Assembly (NCBI GenBank): GCA_003220495.1
Contig: QHSP01000019.1
Coordinates: 44,148 to 108,147 of the forward strand
Length of the DNA stretch: 64,000 nt
Direction of reading: 5' to 3'
DNA from: Candidatus Rokuibacteriota bacterium
GTDB lineage: Bacteria > Methylomirabilota > Methylomirabilia > Rokubacteriales > CSP1-6
Position numbers and translations under genes: made by a program. The stretch's first letter is position 1, and each line of letters starts with the position of its first letter. Below the pieces are notes generated by a model, which did no database searches, had not been told where the DNA came from, and was given only the letters and a program-made list of their open reading frames with translations. Below are positions 22,727-48,147 of this stretch, one piece after another.

Positions 22727-24163
22727 TTATCGGGAGCTCCCCACGGTCGCGGCGCGCGACTTGCGCCGGGCGACGCCGGTCTTGATGGCCGCCTCCGAGA
22801 CGGCCGCCGCGACGGCCGGCACGACCCGGCTGTCGAACATCGAGGGCGTGATGTACTCCTCGCCCAGCTCTTCTTTGGTCACGATCTCCGCCAGCGCCTG
22901 CGCCGCGGCGAGCTTCATCTCGTCGTTCACGCGCCGGGCGCGCACATCGAGCATGCCGCGGAAGAACCCGGGGAAGCAGCAAGAGTTGTTGATTTGGTTC
23001 GGATAGTCCGAGCGACCAGTGGCCATCACCCGGACGTACGGGCCGGCCTCCTCGGGCAAGATCTCCGGGACCGGATTGGCCATCGCGAAGACGATCGGGT
23101 CGCGGCCCATGGCCTTGATGTCCTTCAGCGAGACCACGCCGGGCCCTGAGAGCCCGATGAACACGTCGGCGCCCTTGAGGGCATCCGCGGCGGTGCCCTT
23201 CAGACGCTTCTCGTTGGTGTGCTTGGCGAACCACTCCTTCATCGCGTTCATGTTGTCCGTGCGGCCGCGATAGAGCGCGCCCGCCCGGTCGCAGGCGATG
23301 ATGTGCTTGGCGCCGGCCTTCATGAGGAGCTTCGCCGTGGCGATCCCGGACGCGCCCGCCCCGATGAACACGATCCGCGCGTCCGAGAGCCGCTTCTTGA
23401 CGATCTTCAGCGCGTTGAGCATGGCGGCCAGAACGACCACGGCCGTTCCGTGCTGGTCGTCGTGGAAGACCGGGATCTCGAGATCCCGCTGCAGGCGCGT
23501 CTCGATGTCGAAGCAGCGCGGCGCGGAAATATCCTCGAGGTTGATGCCGCCGAAGATCGGGGAGATCGCCTTGACGATCGAGACGATCTCGTCGACGTCC
23601 TTGGTCGCCAGACAGATCGGGAACGCGTCCACGCCGGCGAATTCCTTGAAGATGAGCGCCTTGCCTTCCATCACCGGCGCCGCGCCGGCCGGGCCGATGT
23701 CGCCGAGCCCCAGCACGGCGGTCCCGTCGGTGACCACCGCGACGCAGTTCTGCTTGATCGTGAGCGCGTAGGCCTTCTGCGGATCGTGATGGATGGCCAT
23801 GCACACGCGGGCGACGCCCGGGGTGTACGCCATCGAGAGGTCGTCGCGCGTCTTCACCGACATCTTGCCCCTCACCTCGATCTTGCCGCCGAGGTGCATC
23901 AGGAAGGTCCGGTCGGAGACGTTCACGACCTTCACGGCGCGAACGCCGCGGATCTTGTCGACGATCTGCTGGCCGTGCGGCTCGTCTCGCGCCTTGAAGG
24001 TGAGGTCGCGGGTAATCGTCGTCTTGGCGACCTGGACCAGGTCGATCGCGCCGATATCGCCACCGGCCTTGCCGATGGCCGAGGTGACCTGCCCGAGCAT
24101 CCCGGGCTTGTTGGTGATCTCCAGCCGGACGGTGAGGCTGTAGCTCGCACTGGGCAACTGCAT
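22727..24163 (-). CDS. NAD(P)-dependent malic enzyme with N-terminal ACT-like domain
   Basis: 478-aa product from ATG at 24161-24163 (RBS GGGGAGGAT): [20 protein letters not shown] Rossmann, FANPVPEI. The upstream part of the 593-aa ORF is not coding. Confidence 0.9.
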
Positions 24164-24294
24164 GTGGATCCTCCCCTGATTGTGATCGGCGCTCGCCCCG
24201 GCCGGCGCAACCCGGCCCGGAACACTGCGGCGGCGGGCACTCCCCCGCTGGAGCGCGTGTATCTTACCTCTCTTGTGGACGATTTCGCGAGGAG

Positions 24295-24450
24295 GTGCGC
24301 GCCGCAGGCTGTCGCGGGGCTGGGGCCCCGTCAGCCGAGGCGCGCCTGCAAATCGAACCGTGCGCGCCGCAGGCTGTCGCGGGGCTGGGGCCCCATCAGC
24401 CGAGGCGCGCCTGCAAATCGAACCGTGCGCGCCGGGGCCCGCCGGCCGAG
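24295..24450. repeat. 65-bp tandem direct repeat, 2 full copies plus a degenerate partial third
   Basis: Unit GTGCGCGCCGCAGGCTGTCGCGGGGCTGGGGCCCCGTCAGCCGAGGCGCGCCTGCAAATCGAACC at 24295-24359 and 24360-24424 (1 mismatch), then GTGCGCGCCGGGGCCCGCCGGCCGAG. Sits in the divergent intergenic region between the malic enzyme and DUF169-MtaA genes. Confidence 0.9.
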
Positions 24451-24494
24451 ACGTGCCCGAAAAGTGTAGTACGCTGCATCGGGAGGCGGCGCTC

Positions 24495-26366
24495 ATGATC
24501 GACGTCAAGACGGCTGATCGGGAACTGCAGCTCTACATCCGCCCGCAGACGTTCCCCGTGGCGATCCGGATGCTGCGACCGGGCGAGGAAATCCCCGAGA
24601 AAGCCCGGCGGCCGGCGCGCGACTTCAAGAAGCTCAGCATGAACTGCCAGGTCATCGACATGGCCCGGCGCTACGGCTGGATGATCGCCCTCACGCGCGA
24701 GGACCACATCTGCTCGCTCGGCATCGCGGCGCTCGGCTTCGAGAAACCGACCCACCTGCACAGCTCCGGAACGCTCTGCGAGGGCATGTACACCGAGACG
24801 AAGTCGGCGGGCCAGCGCTCCGAGGCCGCGGTCGACAAATTCGCCCCGGGAGAGTATTCGACTCTGCTGGTGGCGCCGCTCGACCGCACCACGTTCGAGC
24901 CGCACCTGGTGTGCATCTACGCCAACCCCGCGCAGGTCATGCGCCTGACGCAGGCCGCGCTCTGGAAGCGGGGCGGCAAGCTGACGTCCTCGTTCGGGGG
25001 CCGCATCGATTGCTCCGAGATCATCGTGACGACGATGCGGACCGATCAGCCGCAGGTGATCCTGCCGTGCTCGGGCGACCGGATATTCGGCCAGACGCAG
25101 GACCACGAGATGGCCTTCACGATTCCGTGGACCCAGATGGAAGAGGTCATCGAGGGCCTCAAGGGCACTCACGACGGCGGGATCCGCTACCCGATCACGC
25201 AGTTCCTCGAGTACGAGGCCAAGCTGCCGCCCAAGTACATGGAGGCGAGCCGCATCTGGGAGGTCGAGCACGGCCGAGCGCAATTCACGAATCGTGAGCG
25301 GGTGGTCGCGGCCTACCGCCGGTCGTTCGCCGACCGCGTGCCGGTCTATCCGATCGTCGCCTCGTTCGCCGGCACCCTCGACGGCCTGTCGATCGAGGAG
25401 TACTGCACGAACGTCCCGAAGGCGATCACGGCGATGCTCAACTACTACGAGCGCTACCAGCCCGACGTGGTCCTGGCCTACAACGACCTCGCAAAGGAAG
25501 CCGAGGCCTTCGGCAGCCGGGTGAAGTACTCGGATTACGTGGTGCCGTCGATCGACCAGCACGTGCTGCAGGACGACAAGGCGAAGCTGGCGCGGCTCGC
25601 GATGCCCGATCCCTACAAGACGGCGCGGCTCCCGGGCTTCCTCGAGCAATGCGAGGCGCTCGTCCGCGCCAAGCCCCCGACGGCCATCGGCGCGGTCGCG
25701 GTCGGTCCGTGGACGATCGCGATGCTGCTGCGCAATCCCGAGACGATGCTGCTCGACACGTTCGAGGACCCGCAGTTCATCCACGACCTGATGCGAGTGG
25801 CGACCGACTTCTGCATGCTCTGGGGCGACGCCATCGCCAAGACGGGGATCGGCCTCTCGTTCTCCGAGCCCACCGCGTCGATCAGCCTGATCTCGCCCGA
25901 CAACTACCGGGAGTTCGTCGCGCCCTATCACAAGGAGCTGGTCGACCACTTCAAGGCCAAGAAGGTCGGCGTGACCACGCACATCTGCGGAACGACCTAT
26001 CCGATCTACGAGGACCTGATCCGCTGCGGCTTCACGACCGTCTCGTTCGACCTCGACCAGCAGGCCGATCCGACGCTCTACGTGGACCAGCTCACGCGCT
26101 TCATGGAGGTCTCGAAGGGCCGGGCCGTCGCGATCGGCAACGTCGACGCGACGAAGTTCGAGCGGTCGACCAAGGAGGCGATGGTCGCCGACGTGCGCCG
26201 CTGCCTCGACGCTGCGGCCAGGCACTCCGCCTTCATCCTGTCGACGTCGTGCGAGATCCCGCCGCGCTCCGACGCCGAGATCGTCAAGTGGTTCATGGAC
26301 GCCGCGCGCGAGTACGGACGCTACGAGCGGATCTTCGACGGGGCCGAGCCGGCGCCGACCTCGTGA
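24495..26366 (+). CDS. fusion protein: DUF169-like N-terminal domain + MtaA/CmuA-type (uroporphyrinogen-decarboxylase family) zinc-dependent corrinoid methyltransferase domain
   Basis: ATG at 24495 with GGGAGG RBS; 623 aa. The C-terminal ~350 aa has the UroD/MtaA fold with zinc-ligand motifs HICG and SCEIP. The N-terminal ~265 aa resembles DUF169/COG2043 from memory; this is not verified. Confidence 0.7.
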   Translation: MIDVKTADRELQLYIRPQTFPVAIRMLRPGEEIPEKARRPARDFKKLSMNCQVIDMARRYGWMIALTREDHICSLGIAALGFEKPTHLHSSGTLCEGMYTETKSAGQRSEAAVDKFAPGEYSTLLVAPLDRTTFEPHLVCIYANPAQVMRLTQAALWKRGGKLTSSFGGRIDCSEIIVTTMRTDQPQVILPCSGDRIFGQTQDHEMAFTIPWTQMEEVIEGLKGTHDGGIRYPITQFLEYEAKLPPKYMEASRIWEVEHGRAQFTNRERVVAAYRRSFADRVPVYPIVASFAGTLDGLSIEEYCTNVPKAITAMLNYYERYQPDVVLAYNDLAKEAEAFGSRVKYSDYVVPSIDQHVLQDDKAKLARLAMPDPYKTARLPGFLEQCEALVRAKPPTAIGAVAVGPWTIAMLLRNPETMLLDTFEDPQFIHDLMRVATDFCMLWGDAIAKTGIGLSFSEPTASISLISPDNYREFVAPYHKELVDHFKAKKVGVTTHICGTTYPIYEDLIRCGFTTVSFDLDQQADPTLYVDQLTRFMEVSKGRAVAIGNVDATKFERSTKEAMVADVRRCLDAAARHSAFILSTSCEIPPRSDAEIVKWFMDAAREYGRYERIFDGAEPAPTS

Positions 26367-26391
26367 GCGGCAACGCCGAGTCGACGCGGGC

Positions 26392-26435
26392 GGGCCGGTA
26401 AAACGACACGGGGATCAGCCGGGATGGCTGACCCC
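26392..26435 (-). terminator. putative intrinsic terminator of the RRM-protein gene
   Basis: Hairpin GGGGTCAGCC-atccc-GGCTGATCCCC on the minus strand followed by GUGUCGUUUUACC; 43 nt after the stop. Confidence 0.4.
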
Positions 26436-26478
26436 CGTTGTGCCTACGCTTTCGGCAGCTCGGTCTGTGCCTACTCTG

Positions 26479-26859
26479 CTACCACTTCACGGGCTTGGAC
26501 GGCCGATGCGCGTAGCCGCTGTCCCGCCCGCCACCGCCACCGGGTCCGCGCCCGCCGCCGCCCGGTCGGCCACCGCCGCCCGGCCGGCCGCCGCCGCCAC
26601 CCGTGCGGGCGGCCTGTGGATTCGAGATCTCCACCGTGATTCTCCGGCCATCGAGCTCACGCCCATTCAGCTGAGAAATCGAGGCCTGGGCCTCTTCCGC
26701 CGTGTTCATCTCGACGAACCCGAATCCCCGTGACTGCCCGGAGAAGCGATCGGTGATCACGGTTGCGGACAGGACGTTACCGCACTGTGTGAAGAACTCC
26801 CGGAGCCCTTCGCTGGTCGTGGAGTACGCAAGACCGCCTATGTAGAGTTTAGATGCCAT
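26479..26859 (-). CDS. RNA-binding protein (single RRM domain with Gly-rich tail)
   Basis: RNP-2 KLYIGGL and RNP-1 RGFGFVEM; C-terminal GGGGRPGGGGRPGGGG repeats. ATG at 26857-26859 with GAGGGGG RBS; about 170 nt 5' UTR. Confidence 0.85.
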   Translation of the reverse strand: MASKLYIGGLAYSTTSEGLREFFTQCGNVLSATVITDRFSGQSRGFGFVEMNTAEEAQASISQLNGRELDGRRITVEISNPQAARTGGGGGRPGGGGRPGGGGRGPGGGGGRDSGYAHRPSKPVKW

Positions 26860-27029: not shown

Positions 27030-28378
<1,349 letters not shown>

Positions 28379-28382
<4 letters not shown>

Positions 28383-47009: not shown

Positions 47010-47019
47010 CGCATTGCCC

Positions 47020-48147
47020 TCACGACAGCGCCTGCTCGAGGTCTTCGATCAGGTCGTCCGGGTGCTCGAGACCGATCGACAGCCTCAAGAGATTGTCCGG
47101 CGTGCGCGTGCCGGCGCCCTCGATCGAGGCGCGGTGCTCGACGAGACTCTCCGTCCCGCCGAAGCTGGTGGCGCGCGTGAACACGCGGAGCTTGGCCGCC
47201 ACGTCCATCGCGCGCGCCCGGTCGCCGCGCACCTGCACCGACATCATTCCGCCGAACGCGGTCATCTGGCGGCGGGCGACGTCGTGCGCCGCGTGGGTCG
47301 GGAGGCCGGGATAGTGCACCGCTTCGACCTTGCGGTGGCCGTGCAGGAACGTGGCGACCCGGAGCGCGTTCTCCGAGTGGCCGCGCACTCGATACGGCAG
47401 GGTCCGGATCCCGCGGCGCACGAGCCAGCAGTCGAACGGCGAAGGCACCGCGCCCGCCGACGCCTGCACCACGCGGATCCGCTCGAACAGAGCGTCGCGC
47501 ACCTTCGACACCACGGCGCCGCCGAGCACGTCGCCGTGGCCGCCGAGGTATTTCGTCGTCGCGTGGACGACCAGATCGGCGCCGAGCCTGAGCGGCGACT
47601 GGAGCACCGGCGTCGCCGTCGTGTTGTCGCAGACGTAGCGAGCGCCCGCCCGCCGGGCGAGCTCGCCGACCGCCGCGATATCGGTGATCTTCCACAGCGG
47701 GTTCGACGGCGTCTCCACCCAGACGAGCCGCGTGCTTGCGCGCATCGCGGCGCGCACGGCGGCGAGGTCGGTCATGTCGACGAGCGTGCTGTCGAGCTTC
47801 CATCGCGCGAAGGTCTCGCGCAGCAGCCGCGAGGTTCCGTGGTACGCGTCCATCGGTGCGACGACGTGGTCGCCGGGCTCGAGCGCCAGCAGAACGGCCG
47901 AGGTCGCCGCGGAAGCCGACGCGAAGGCCGCCGCCGCGGCGCCTCCCTCGAGCGCCGCCAGGCACTCCTCGAGCGCCTCGCGGTTGGGGTTGTTGTTGCG
48001 CGAGTAGAGGAAGCCGCGGGTGTACGAGCCATCCGGATCGCGCTCGAATGTCGTGGACGGATGGATGGCCGGTGTGACCGCGCCGGTGCCGGGATCGACG
48101 TGGGCGCCGGCGTGGATCGCGACCGTTTCGATCCGCATCTCAAGCAC
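47020..48147 (-). CDS. cystathionine gamma-synthase / beta-lyase family PLP enzyme (trans-sulfuration)
   Basis: Cys/Met-metabolism PLP fold: ...TFER...YSRNNNPNREALE...HATTKYLGGHGDVLGG (PLP-binding Lys); 375 aa. Confidence 0.85.
   Translation of the reverse strand: MLEMRIETVAIHAGAHVDPGTGAVTPAIHPSTTFERDPDGSYTRGFLYSRNNNPNREALEECLAALEGGAAAAAFASASAATSAVLLALEPGDHVVAPMDAYHGTSRLLRETFARWKLDSTLVDMTDLAAVRAAMRASTRLVWVETPSNPLWKITDIAAVGELARRAGARYVCDNTTATPVLQSPLRLGADLVVHATTKYLGGHGDVLGGAVVSKVRDALFERIRVVQASAGAVPSPFDCWLVRRGIRTLPYRVRGHSENALRVATFLHGHRKVEAVHYPGLPTHAAHDVARRQMTAFGGMMSVQVRGDRARAMDVAAKLRVFTRATSFGGTESLVEHRASIEGAGTRTPDNLLRLSIGLEHPDDLIEDLEQALS

Follow-up and report, generated by a model that had tools for sequence, protein, structure and literature searches.

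The 65-bp tandem array between the malic enzyme and DUF169/URO-D genes is very probably a local duplication of a dispersed, REP-like hairpin repeat of Candidatus Rokubacteria (Methylomirabilota), and is most likely a passenger in this spacer, not a dedicated operator. Throughout, the window is the whole stretch of 64 kb of DNA that was analysed. The features at the locus are as follows.

22727-24163, minus strand: ACT-domain malic enzyme gene (Pfam malic, Malic_M and ACT_4), first in a malic-acs-MFS row
24164-24494, no strand: non-coding spacer of 331 bp, flanked by the divergent ACT-malic enzyme and DUF169-URO-D genes (from translations and Pfam matches of both)
24295-24359, plus strand: repeat unit 1, 65 bp; hairpin at 24297-24345, then the tail CTGCAAATCGAACC; family-profile match, E 5e-14
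24360-24424, plus strand: repeat unit 2, 65 bp; hairpin at 24362-24410; family-profile match, E 3e-13
24425-24469, plus strand: decayed third unit; exact 10-nt head, weak profile match at 24435-24465
24495-26366, plus strand: DUF169 and URO-D (MtaA/CmuA-like) fusion gene (Pfam DUF169, 3e-56; URO-D, 2e-57)

The edges of the spacer are exact: the malic enzyme ATG (minus strand) is at 24163 and the DUF169/URO-D ATG at 24495. Neighbours of the malic enzyme gene carry AMP-binding/ACAS_N and MFS_1 domains (Pfam). The DUF169/URO-D gene lies 3' of the array and shares its strand; the encoded protein is found in 80 Rokubacteria species at 80-97% amino-acid identity. A sigma-54 activator gene is present a few kb downstream of the array.

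Tandem Repeats Finder places the array at 24295-24434 (period 65, 2.2 copies, 98% matches, score 273), and this is by a wide margin the strongest tandem array in the window; none of 100 dinucleotide shuffles gave any repeat match. Units 1 and 2 are 98% identical and differ only at G24329 versus A24394. The first-pass annotation had described two units with a single mismatch and a degenerate third copy filling about half of a divergent spacer of about 330 bp, and this description stands: with the decayed copy included, the array covers approximately 176 bp, or 53% of the 331-bp spacer. The third unit retains an exact head (GTGCGCGCCG, 24425-24434), while its 3' half, 30 nt at 24434-24463, is a 77% match offset by -19 nt; this offset is explained by an internal 19-nt deletion, with which the left hairpin arm has gone. 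The remaining 3' arm carries the family-consensus GCCGGCCGAG, the tail reads CCCGAAAAGTGTAG, and the ability to fold is lost (z +1.2). In four relatives (L012, L013, L019 and L040), the counterpart of this unit is the single copy of ancestral type. The two-unit allele was assembled independently in metagenomes L001, L005, L009, L011 and L006; consequently, it is not an assembly artefact of the window.

Open reading frames of 67 and 697 amino acids called across the array had been dismissed earlier as artefacts, rightly so. The non-coding call is supported by a unit length, 65, that does not divide by 3, by length differences of exactly one unit between strains and by conservation of the DUF169 gene start. 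A coding repeat is also rejected, with a period of 65 and a copy number that varies while the flanking proteins are unchanged.

Each unit contains the palindrome GGCGCGCC and a GCAGGC/GCCTGC inverted pair, as had been reported. Both turn out to be parts of a larger, interrupted hairpin of 19 bp, which is predicted to be very stable as RNA (-40 kcal/mol, z -3.2) and as single-stranded DNA (from -25.3 kcal/mol, z -4.2, to -29 kcal/mol, z -4.8). Units of the family are about 58-66 nt long and include a hairpin of about 50 nt with three stem segments. In each, a short head (GNNG, usually GYAG, then TGCGCGC) is followed by the GC-rich interrupted hairpin of 19 bp and then by a tail that is richer in A/T, approximately CTATGAA. 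Copies align over about 58 nt with the consensus GTGCGCGCYGCAGGCCGTCGCGGGGCTGGGGCCCCGCCGGCCGAGGCGCGCCTATGAA, to which the window unit is approximately 90% identical. Directly before TGCG, 34 copies have GCAG, 23 have GTAG and 13 have GTGG; taking all copies together, 17% read GTAG, 55% GYRG and 86% GNNG.

In alignment A1 (134 sequences), the head, the tail and the two outer arms, all outside the search pattern, contain near-invariant columns. The innermost stem is fixed by the search pattern itself, so its invariance is due to the way in which copies were ascertained. Across the 134 copies, 93% of stem cells are paired, compared with 39-45% when the partners are slid. Double changes occur at seven stem pairs across 72 cells; covariation was counted per sequence and not per event, and many of the counts come from two subfamilies. 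At columns 30-56, 77 sequences have CG and 43 have AU; GC, CG and AU all occur at columns 29-57, and G-U pairs are also present in the stem. The window units themselves carry the compensatory pair GGCTG/CAGCC in place of the consensus GGCCG/CGGCC. These compensatory changes, all read from aligned sequences, point to a hairpin that is under selection. The palindromes are arms of a hairpin with covarying pairs, which argues for a structure rather than a fixed recognition sequence.

The family is widely dispersed. A search of metagenome contigs with the core TCGNGGGGCTGGGGCCCCN7GAGG recovers at least 140 copies on at least 120 unrelated stretches, and tblastn finds malic, DUF169 or RRM genes on none of the stretches listed. 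Among the matches listed there are 136 arrays; 14 stretches carry two or three separate arrays, approximately one extra array per 49 kb. Extrapolation from these metagenome fragments would give about 100 or more copies per genome. In the window, only one locus of the family is occupied: exact, 3-mismatch and blastn-short searches and nhmmer --max with single-unit and family profiles find no copy outside the array. Twenty of the 136 arrays listed (about 15%) have more than one unit; these have 2-4 units, all head-to-tail, with periods of 59, 60, 61, 63, 65 and 66 nt, mostly not multiples of 3. No inverted neighbour is found within 300 nt in any of the 136 arrays. Six of the nine element-adjacent genes that were looked up and found fall in 90% clusters named Rokubacteria/Methylomirabilota by NCBI. 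A full-text literature search for 'Rokubacteria' with 'repetitive extragenic palindromic' returned no paper.

Copy number varies at the DUF169 locus and at two further sites in the window.

26367-26478, minus strand: 3' flank of the RRM/RGG RNA-binding protein gene (26479-26859, minus strand); no repeat in this genome
47012-47021, minus strand: empty site of the repeat family, TGA-GGGCAATGCG-ATG on the minus strand, between two same-strand genes

At the DUF169 locus, the comparison of strains that had been proposed earlier reveals one or two units. The spacer is 331 bp with two units in L001, L005, L009 and L011; L006 also has two units, on a contig that stops before the DUF169 start. In L002, L003, L008 and L010 the spacer is 266 bp and unit 2 is missing. 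Since one-unit and two-unit strains have identical flanking proteins, the earlier suggestion of a recent expansion holds. In other species the same spacer has no unit (L014-L016, L018 and L020), one unit (L013 and L019), a decayed copy (L012) or a remnant (L040); these last four are the only exceptions among the 80 orthologous spacers, most of which have no unit. After the RRM gene, other species have one or two family units at the same spot, before the terminator, and the repeat head can there supply the TAG stop codon; the range at this site is 0-2. It is likewise 0-2 at window position 47012, where the orthologous spacer holds one unit in L100 (flank 92% identical to the window) and two tandem units in L146 (87% identical).

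Comparison of the filled sites in L100 and L146 with the empty site at 47012-47021 shows no clean target-site duplication, and the flanks differ. A MITE with target duplication is therefore not supported, and mobility of the family would follow from presence and absence at orthologous sites. The insert at the DUF169 locus of L019 has a head-like AGTACGC motif on both sides; this is equally a slippage footprint. Empty sites may also have arisen by deletion from an ancestrally filled state. An integron attC or CRISPR array is rejected as well: the flanking genes form housekeeping operons and the units abut without spacers.

Relative to genes, the elements have a strong sense-strand bias. Judged with a crude GC3-based ORF caller and among the matches listed, the downstream gene shares the strand of the element in 73 arrays and lies opposite to it in 14; for the upstream gene the counts are 44 and 11. 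From the stop codon to the hairpin the median distance is about 6 nt, and 16-25 nt usually separate the element from the following start codon. Elements are found within conserved operons, e.g. in rpsD|rpoA, tig|clpP and gatA|gatB. Given this sense-strand placement between co-directional genes, just past one stop and shortly before the next start, the elements are probably transcribed.

This arrangement raises a different reading, in which the element is not selfish DNA and is instead a host-selected functional RNA module: a sense hairpin between cistrons or in a 5'-UTR that would set the stability, processing or translation of the downstream mRNA, with the array acting as a multi-hairpin leader of the DUF169/URO-D gene. 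This is possible, though on balance unlikely. The sense bias (73 versus 14), the tight spacing of stop codon, hairpin and next ribosome-binding site and start, the location inside conserved operons, the compensatory changes and G-U pairs in the stem, the very stable RNA fold and the distinctness of the element from the true terminator in RRM 3'UTRs all favour it. On the other hand, the element is freely present or absent at orthologous sites, which speaks against its being essential to any single gene, and the orientation bias could also be explained by single-strand-DNA insertion tied to replication direction. A Rfam scan of 23800-24900 with E up to 10 gave only chance-level miRNA and snoRNA hits (E 0.7-9, far below gathering scores). 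The positions of candidate promoters in the spacer also bear on this reading.

24261-24290, no strand: conserved promoter-like core (cross-species conservation of GCGTATTCTACCTCTGTTGTAGAGGATTTCGCGAGG)
24466-24478, plus strand: head-like motif GTAGTACGCTGCA closing the array; resembles the family head GYAG-TGCGCGCYGCA

Every orthologous spacer, whether it has units or not, keeps the GTAGTACGCTGCA motif beside the DUF169/URO-D gene, and the DUF169 start and its GGGAGG ribosome-binding site are also kept among orthologues. Within this motif, we infer TACGCT (24470-24475) to be a candidate -10 box of the DUF169/URO-D promoter. It lies 3' of the array; if it is used, the array may not be transcribed, which counts against a DUF169/URO-D leader. 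TTGTGG (24273-24278, plus strand) would be the ancestral -35 box of the same promoter, now split from TACGCT by the array; in species without units, TTGTAG-17 nt-TACGCT is contiguous. For the malic operon, a putative minus-strand promoter could be formed by a -10 box TAAGAT (reverse complement of 24261-24266) and a -35 box TCGCGA (24285-24290) with an 18-nt spacer. All of these boxes were assigned from cross-species conservation and matching by eye. A promoter and terminator consensus scan found no sigma-70-type site in the spacer and a single terminator-like match, located inside the malic gene. A sigma-54 promoter was looked for by eye in the spacer, given the nearby activator gene, and rejected as the GG/GC spacing is wrong.

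It is very unlikely that the unit is an intrinsic terminator or attenuator hairpin, even though its stem-loop is stable and GC-rich and many copies closely follow stop codons. No T-run follows the stem on either strand of the unit. In L014, L035 and L038, a separate canonical hairpin-plus-T-run terminator is found downstream of the element at the RRM 3' end, and copies inside operons such as rpsD|rpoA and gatA|gatB require read-through.

The first-pass annotation favoured an array of locus-specific operators bound cooperatively by a transcription factor, which would control the divergent malic/acs and DUF169/URO-D promoters. The location in a divergent promoter region, the palindromic parts of each unit and the sigma-54 activator gene are in keeping with such an array. 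The first-pass annotation had also noted that a dispersed REP-like repeat would speak against it, and this is what the search for other copies found. At least 120 unrelated sites carry the unit, most of the 80 orthologous spacers are without it although both genes are highly conserved, and strains whose flanking proteins are identical differ in the number of units. Divergent contexts account for only 5 of 128 arrays among the matches listed. The operator reading is consequently abandoned as most improbable.

Least credible of all is a tandem duplication of local sequence that is private to this locus and unrelated to the rest of the genome: its A-B-A-B-A layout with a 10-nt junction repeat is a classic slippage footprint and no other copy is present in the 64-kb window, but the unit matches the consensus of more than 130 copies elsewhere, so that duplication explains the array and not the unit, and survives only as the local step which amplified it.

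For the dispersed repeat, the following course of events is proposed. In an ancestor of the clade, one copy would have arrived in the spacer, between its two divergent core promoters. It would then have been duplicated head-to-tail, probably through its 10-nt heads by replication slippage or unequal recombination; either process would produce the A-B-A-B-A layout. Copy number is still shifting among strains and sister species, which have 0, 1 or 2 units or a remnant. By analogy with REPs, family elements might act as stable RNA hairpins which affect mRNA decay or processing. The array could modestly change DUF169/URO-D expression, either because the old -35 region is displaced or, if the array is transcribed, because 5' hairpins are added. 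Copy number may have an effect on both promoters.

The family is a REP family in the broad sense: it is a stem-loop palindrome, it is dispersed extragenically, and it lies in unidirectional spacers near the 3' end of the upstream gene. With the REP/BIME elements of Enterobacteria and the GTAG REPs it shares a short, imperfect, extragenic palindrome in many dispersed copies, mostly between unidirectional genes and near the upstream stop codon. GTAG REPs are rare in divergent spacers and their head can supply a TAG stop codon (Di Nocera et al. 2013, PMC3733652). The Rokubacteria family resembles them in both respects, the second being seen at the RRM gene, and also in having subfamilies with complementary stem changes and G-T pairs. 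The differences lie in size, tag and arrangement. The Rokubacteria hairpin is about 50 nt with three stem segments, compared with 20-40 bp in REPs. The GTAG tag exceeds 90% in most GTAG REP families and is degenerate in some (PMC3733652); it is weaker in Rokubacteria (17% GTAG, 55% GYRG). Dimers of GTAG REPs are predominantly inverted, and head-to-tail ones are few or missing (PMC3733652). Rokubacteria clusters, in contrast, are exclusively head-to-tail among the matches listed, and unlike REPs their orientation is strongly sense-biased.

The SMAG repeats of Stenotrophomonas maltophilia are GTAG families 6-9 and occur mainly as inverted dimers (PMC3733652). Compared by description and not by sequence, both SMAGs and the Rokubacteria family are GC-rich stem-loops with a GTAG-type end, abundant in the spacers of high-GC genomes and sometimes clustered; SMAGs are shorter and, unlike the Rokubacteria units, mainly paired in inverse orientation.

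REPINs of Pseudomonas are inverted REP doublets mobilised by a single-copy RAYT gene, which is flanked by the same REPs (Bertels and Rainey 2011, PMC3116915). Like REPINs, the Rokubacteria elements are short hairpin repeats spread within the genome and variably present at orthologous sites, and by this analogy the dispersal and variable presence suggest non-autonomous mobile DNA. Unlike REPINs and BIMEs, they form no inverted doublets in the 136 arrays listed. Furthermore, tblastn with E. coli RayT and IS200 TnpA queries found no RAYT/IS200 (Y1) transposase in 2.2 Mb, which is too small a sample to exclude a single-copy gene. None of the ORFs overlapping closely spaced copies in L128 and L160 is transposase-like by eye.

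A parallel also exists outside the REPs. The MIRU-VNTR loci of Mycobacterium tuberculosis are reportedly head-to-tail units of 40-100 bp, dispersed in operon spacers and with strain-variable copy number; MIRUs are said to carry small ORFs which overlap the flanking genes, and not to be defined by a hairpin. The Rokubacteria units are similarly dispersed, intergenic and head-to-tail, with variable copy number at three loci. They differ in that most of their periods (59-66 nt) do not divide by 3 and their conserved feature is a covarying stem-loop.

It is conceivable, if improbable, that the family represents a distinct kind of interspersed repeat: strictly head-to-tail, sense-oriented, and inserting in Rokubacteria operons after a stop codon and ahead of the following ribosome-binding site. 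Such a repeat would have spread otherwise than by the inverted-pair REPIN/RAYT route and would act on RNA processing, stability or translation, with unit number tuning expression.

At the malic/acs and DUF169-MtaA genes, a false lead is removed: the repeat is no evidence of a special regulator. More broadly, a REP-like family is documented in an uncultured, large-genome soil phylum. Such repeats break or collapse metagenome assemblies and give rise to false ORFs, here those of 67 and 697 aa; they are also ready variable markers for strain tracking. The head-to-tail exclusivity and sense bias of this family, unlike classic REPs, could inform how such elements spread and whether they act as RNA.

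By Tandem Repeats Finder, the window (G+C 69%) contains one outstanding array, at 24295-24434 (period 65, 2.2 copies, 98% matches, score 273). It lies in a divergent spacer, 24164-24494, whose extent of exactly 331 bp agrees with the flanking genes:

22727-24163, minus strand, ACT-domain malic enzyme gene, with acetyl-CoA synthetase and MFS transporter genes after it
24495-26366, plus strand, DUF169 + URO-D (MtaA/CmuA-like) fusion gene, on the other side of the spacer

The two units, 24295-24359 and 24360-24424, differ at a single base (G24329 versus A24394), and shuffles of the window gave no match at all. The first-pass annotation was right about the spacer, the tandem array and its non-coding nature. 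A decayed third copy follows the second unit. Its 10-nt head, GTGCGCGCCG, is intact at 24425-24434; its 3' half (24434-24463, 77% identity) is displaced by 19 nt and therefore an internal deletion took out the left hairpin arm. Folding has been lost in this copy. The layout is A-B-A-B-A with the 10-nt head at every junction, as slipped-strand mispairing or unequal recombination would leave it; the array probably arose by one of these routes.

The first-pass annotation read the array as operator-length units for cooperative regulator binding, or as a recently expanded regulatory element, proposed a search for other copies of the unit, and held that a common dispersed repeat would refute its reading. 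Such a repeat was found. A metagenome scan with the conserved core TCGNGGGGCTGGGGCCCCN7GAGG (21 searched bases) returned at least 140 copies on at least 120 stretches; among the matches listed, malic-enzyme, DUF169/URO-D and RRM (RNA-binding protein) genes occur on 0 of 120 stretches. This refutes a locus-specific array, and by the annotation's own reasoning the operator reading of the malic/DUF169 spacer falls. Copies can be aligned without gaps far outside the searched bases (consensus GTGCGCGCYGCAGGCCGTCGCGGGGCTGGGGCCCCGCCGGCCGAGGCGCGCCTATGAA); in another subfamily the sequence is GCGAGC...GGACG...CGTCC...GCGAGC. The unit of the window has approximately 90% identity to the consensus and carries the compensatory pair GGCTG/CAGCC where the consensus has GGCCG/CGGCC. 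The unit belongs to a dispersed, hairpin-forming repeat family of Rokubacteria that resembles repetitive extragenic palindromes (REPs).

Counted by profile, the 120 stretches listed hold 136 arrays: 116 single, 12 double, six triple and two quadruple. Every multi-unit array in this census is head-to-tail and has a period of 59-66 nt, and the census contains no inverted unit pairs within 300 nt. Two or three separate arrays are found on 14 of these stretches, which corresponds to a further array roughly every 49 kb.

The unit folds as an interrupted 19-bp hairpin (GCGCGCC/GGCGCGC, GGCTG/CAGCC and GCGGGGC/GCCCCGT) with a TGGG loop; folding energies are -40 kcal/mol for RNA (z -3.2) and -25 kcal/mol for single-stranded DNA (z -4.2). 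The palindromes described in the first pass are present, but as parts of this larger hairpin. In an alignment of 134 family sequences, standard pairs fill 93% of cells versus 39-45% after the 3' partners have been shifted along. Both-sided changes occur at seven pairs (72 cells), and the observed score was reached by none of 500 shuffles. Middle-stem pair types are CG, AU, UG and UA at columns 30-56 and GC, CG and AU at columns 29-57; the innermost stem is uninformative because the search pattern fixed it. Judged from this covariation, the stem-loop structure of the family is conserved. Two of the outer pairs have turned into G-A/A-G mismatches in the GCGAGC subfamily; the outer stem is maintained only in part. 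The same C-to-A change is seen in both arms of this subfamily as a direct repeat (columns 13-14 with 64-65), which makes the two central outer-stem pairs uncompensated tandem G-A/A-G mismatches; these may reflect a sequence-specific reader or merely a tolerated mismatch.

Hosts were assigned by exact-sequence look-up of proteins encoded beside the elements. For RpoA, ClpP, UbiD decarboxylase, LamB/YcsF, glyoxalase and an isocitrate-lyase-family protein, NCBI names the 90% clusters Candidatus Rokubacteria, Rokuibacteriota or Methylomirabilota; the median G+C of the element-bearing contigs is 0.70, near the window's value. The window itself comes from a member of Candidatus Rokubacteria/Methylomirabilota.

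Copy number was compared between strains using contigs that encode exactly identical flanking proteins; soil-metagenome contigs were returned. The spacer in these is either 331 bp (two units) or 266 bp (one unit), which bears out the recent expansion proposed in the first pass. Alleles differ in point variants within the units (CCTGC/CCTAC, CCCCG/CCCCA, GCTG/GCTA), and the metagenome stretch L006 carries a more diverged two-unit allele with several changes in the second unit; the difference in copy number is thus genuine and has recurred, and is not a one-off assembly effect.

Between species, 80 orthologous loci were compared. Two boxes are conserved in the orthologous spacers, GCGTATTCTACCTCTGTTGTAGAGGATTTCGCGAGG and (G/T)AGTACGCT...GGGAGG...ATG. 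The boxes abut with no unit in L014, L015, L016, L018 and L020; a single unit separates them in L013 and L019, the closest species (L012) has a decayed unit, and L040 retains only a remnant, the junction plus right arm. This fixes the array position between CGCGAGG and AGTACGCT. The array is confined to one small clade, in which it has been acquired, duplicated, degraded and trimmed. At the same point, L017, L022 and L023 carry other GC-rich inserts (25-120 nt) that look unrelated; the point seems prone to insertions. Many more distant species (L026, L029-L031, L038, L039, L046, L047 and others) have about 1 kb between their malic and DUF169 matches, in place of 100-330 bp; an additional gene or a larger insertion may lie in this interval. 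The DUF169 + URO-D protein (window 24495-26366; L012-L091) has 80-97% identity across 80 Rokubacteria species, which is unusually strong conservation, and its gene still adjoins the ACT-malic enzyme gene in many of them.

A profile of the units also finds homologous copies in other species next to the gene for the RRM/RGG RNA-binding protein, which is convergent with the DUF169 gene; they directly follow its stop codon (TGGTAG, then TGCGAGCC...):

L014 5903-5969, one copy
L035 6914-7043, two tandem copies
L037 11877-11926, one copy
L038 14704-14762, one copy

The head of the unit supplies the TAG stop codon, and the unit lies in the 3'UTR; a separate canonical terminator follows the element in L014, L035 and L038. 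The window's own RRM gene (26479-26859, minus strand) has no unit copy at its 3' side. Its product has a Gly/Arg-rich tail encoded by CCG-rich tandem repeats (26524-26603). Downstream of the RRM gene, L002 4938-6290 (orthologous to approximately window 27030-28382, minus strand) encodes a response regulator of the sigma-54-dependent type (Response_reg, Sigma54_activat, HTH_8); the long gene after it may encode its sensor kinase. No sigma-54 promoter was seen by eye in the repeat-bearing spacer.

A third site is empty in the window:

47012-47021, minus strand, empty site for the repeat family; same-strand genes parted only by TGA-GGGCAATGCG-ATG

Its orthologues hold one unit in L100 and two tandem units in L146, stretches with 92% and 87% DNA identity to this part of the window. 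Comparison of the empty and filled sites gives no clean target duplication; the leftover GCAATGCG looks like the head of the element. The series of none, one, two or a remnant at three orthologous sites provides good support for an ongoing copy-number process.

Orientation was counted with a simple GC3-based gene call, for arrays among the matches listed. Relative to the downstream gene, 73 arrays have the element on the same strand and 14 on the opposite one; relative to the upstream gene, 44 and 11 do. A typical element starts about 6 nt past a stop codon and ends 16-25 nt ahead of the next start, and elements are found inside classic operons (rpsD-rpoA, tig-clpP, gatA-gatB). Divergent spacers such as the malic/DUF169 locus are rare (5/128).

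Di Nocera et al. define GTAG- and CGTC-tagged REPs (PMC3733652). These have stems of 6-13 bp and in most families keep the terminal tag in >90% of members; they are mostly inverted dimers, head-to-tail dimers being absent or rare, and favour unidirectional and convergent spacers; the tag often gives a TAG stop codon (PMC3733652). The Rokubacteria family is similar in palindrome, dispersal, spacer preference and stop-codon overlap. It differs in its weak tag (GTAG 17%, GYRG 55%, GNNG 86%), longer unit and exclusively head-to-tail clusters. No Y1/RAYT transposase gene was found in 2.2 Mb searched, a sample too small to exclude a single-copy gene. In its tandem, strain-variable behaviour the repeat recalls MIRU-VNTR loci, although it has no unit-spanning reading frame. 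A full-text literature search returned no paper that combines the name 'Rokubacteria' with the term 'repetitive extragenic palindromic'. The head-to-tail, sense-biased organisation of the family is unusual; otherwise these are REP-like interspersed hairpin repeats, a known kind.

At the malic/DUF169 locus, the divergent genes share a conserved back-to-back promoter-like core of about 45 bp (window 24255-24294 and 24466-24494; upstream regions of L014-L023). In unit-free species the contiguous TTGTAG-17 nt-TACGCT looks like a candidate DUF169/URO-D promoter, and TCGCGA-18 nt-TAGAAT on the opposite strand like a candidate malic-operon promoter. A consensus promoter scan did not call these boxes, which come from conservation. 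In the window, TACGCT (24470-24475) still adjoins the DUF169/URO-D gene, and the old candidate -35, TTGTGG (24273-24278), is now about 190 bp away; the array would be wedged between the two candidate promoters. If these boxes are correct, the array at this locus lies in DNA upstream of the promoter and is perhaps not transcribed.

For the family, sense-strand bias, tight stop-start placement and operon location suggest that the elements are transcribed; the bias could come instead from a single-strand-DNA insertion mechanism. Transcribed elements could, by analogy with REPs, act as stable RNA hairpins on decay or processing.
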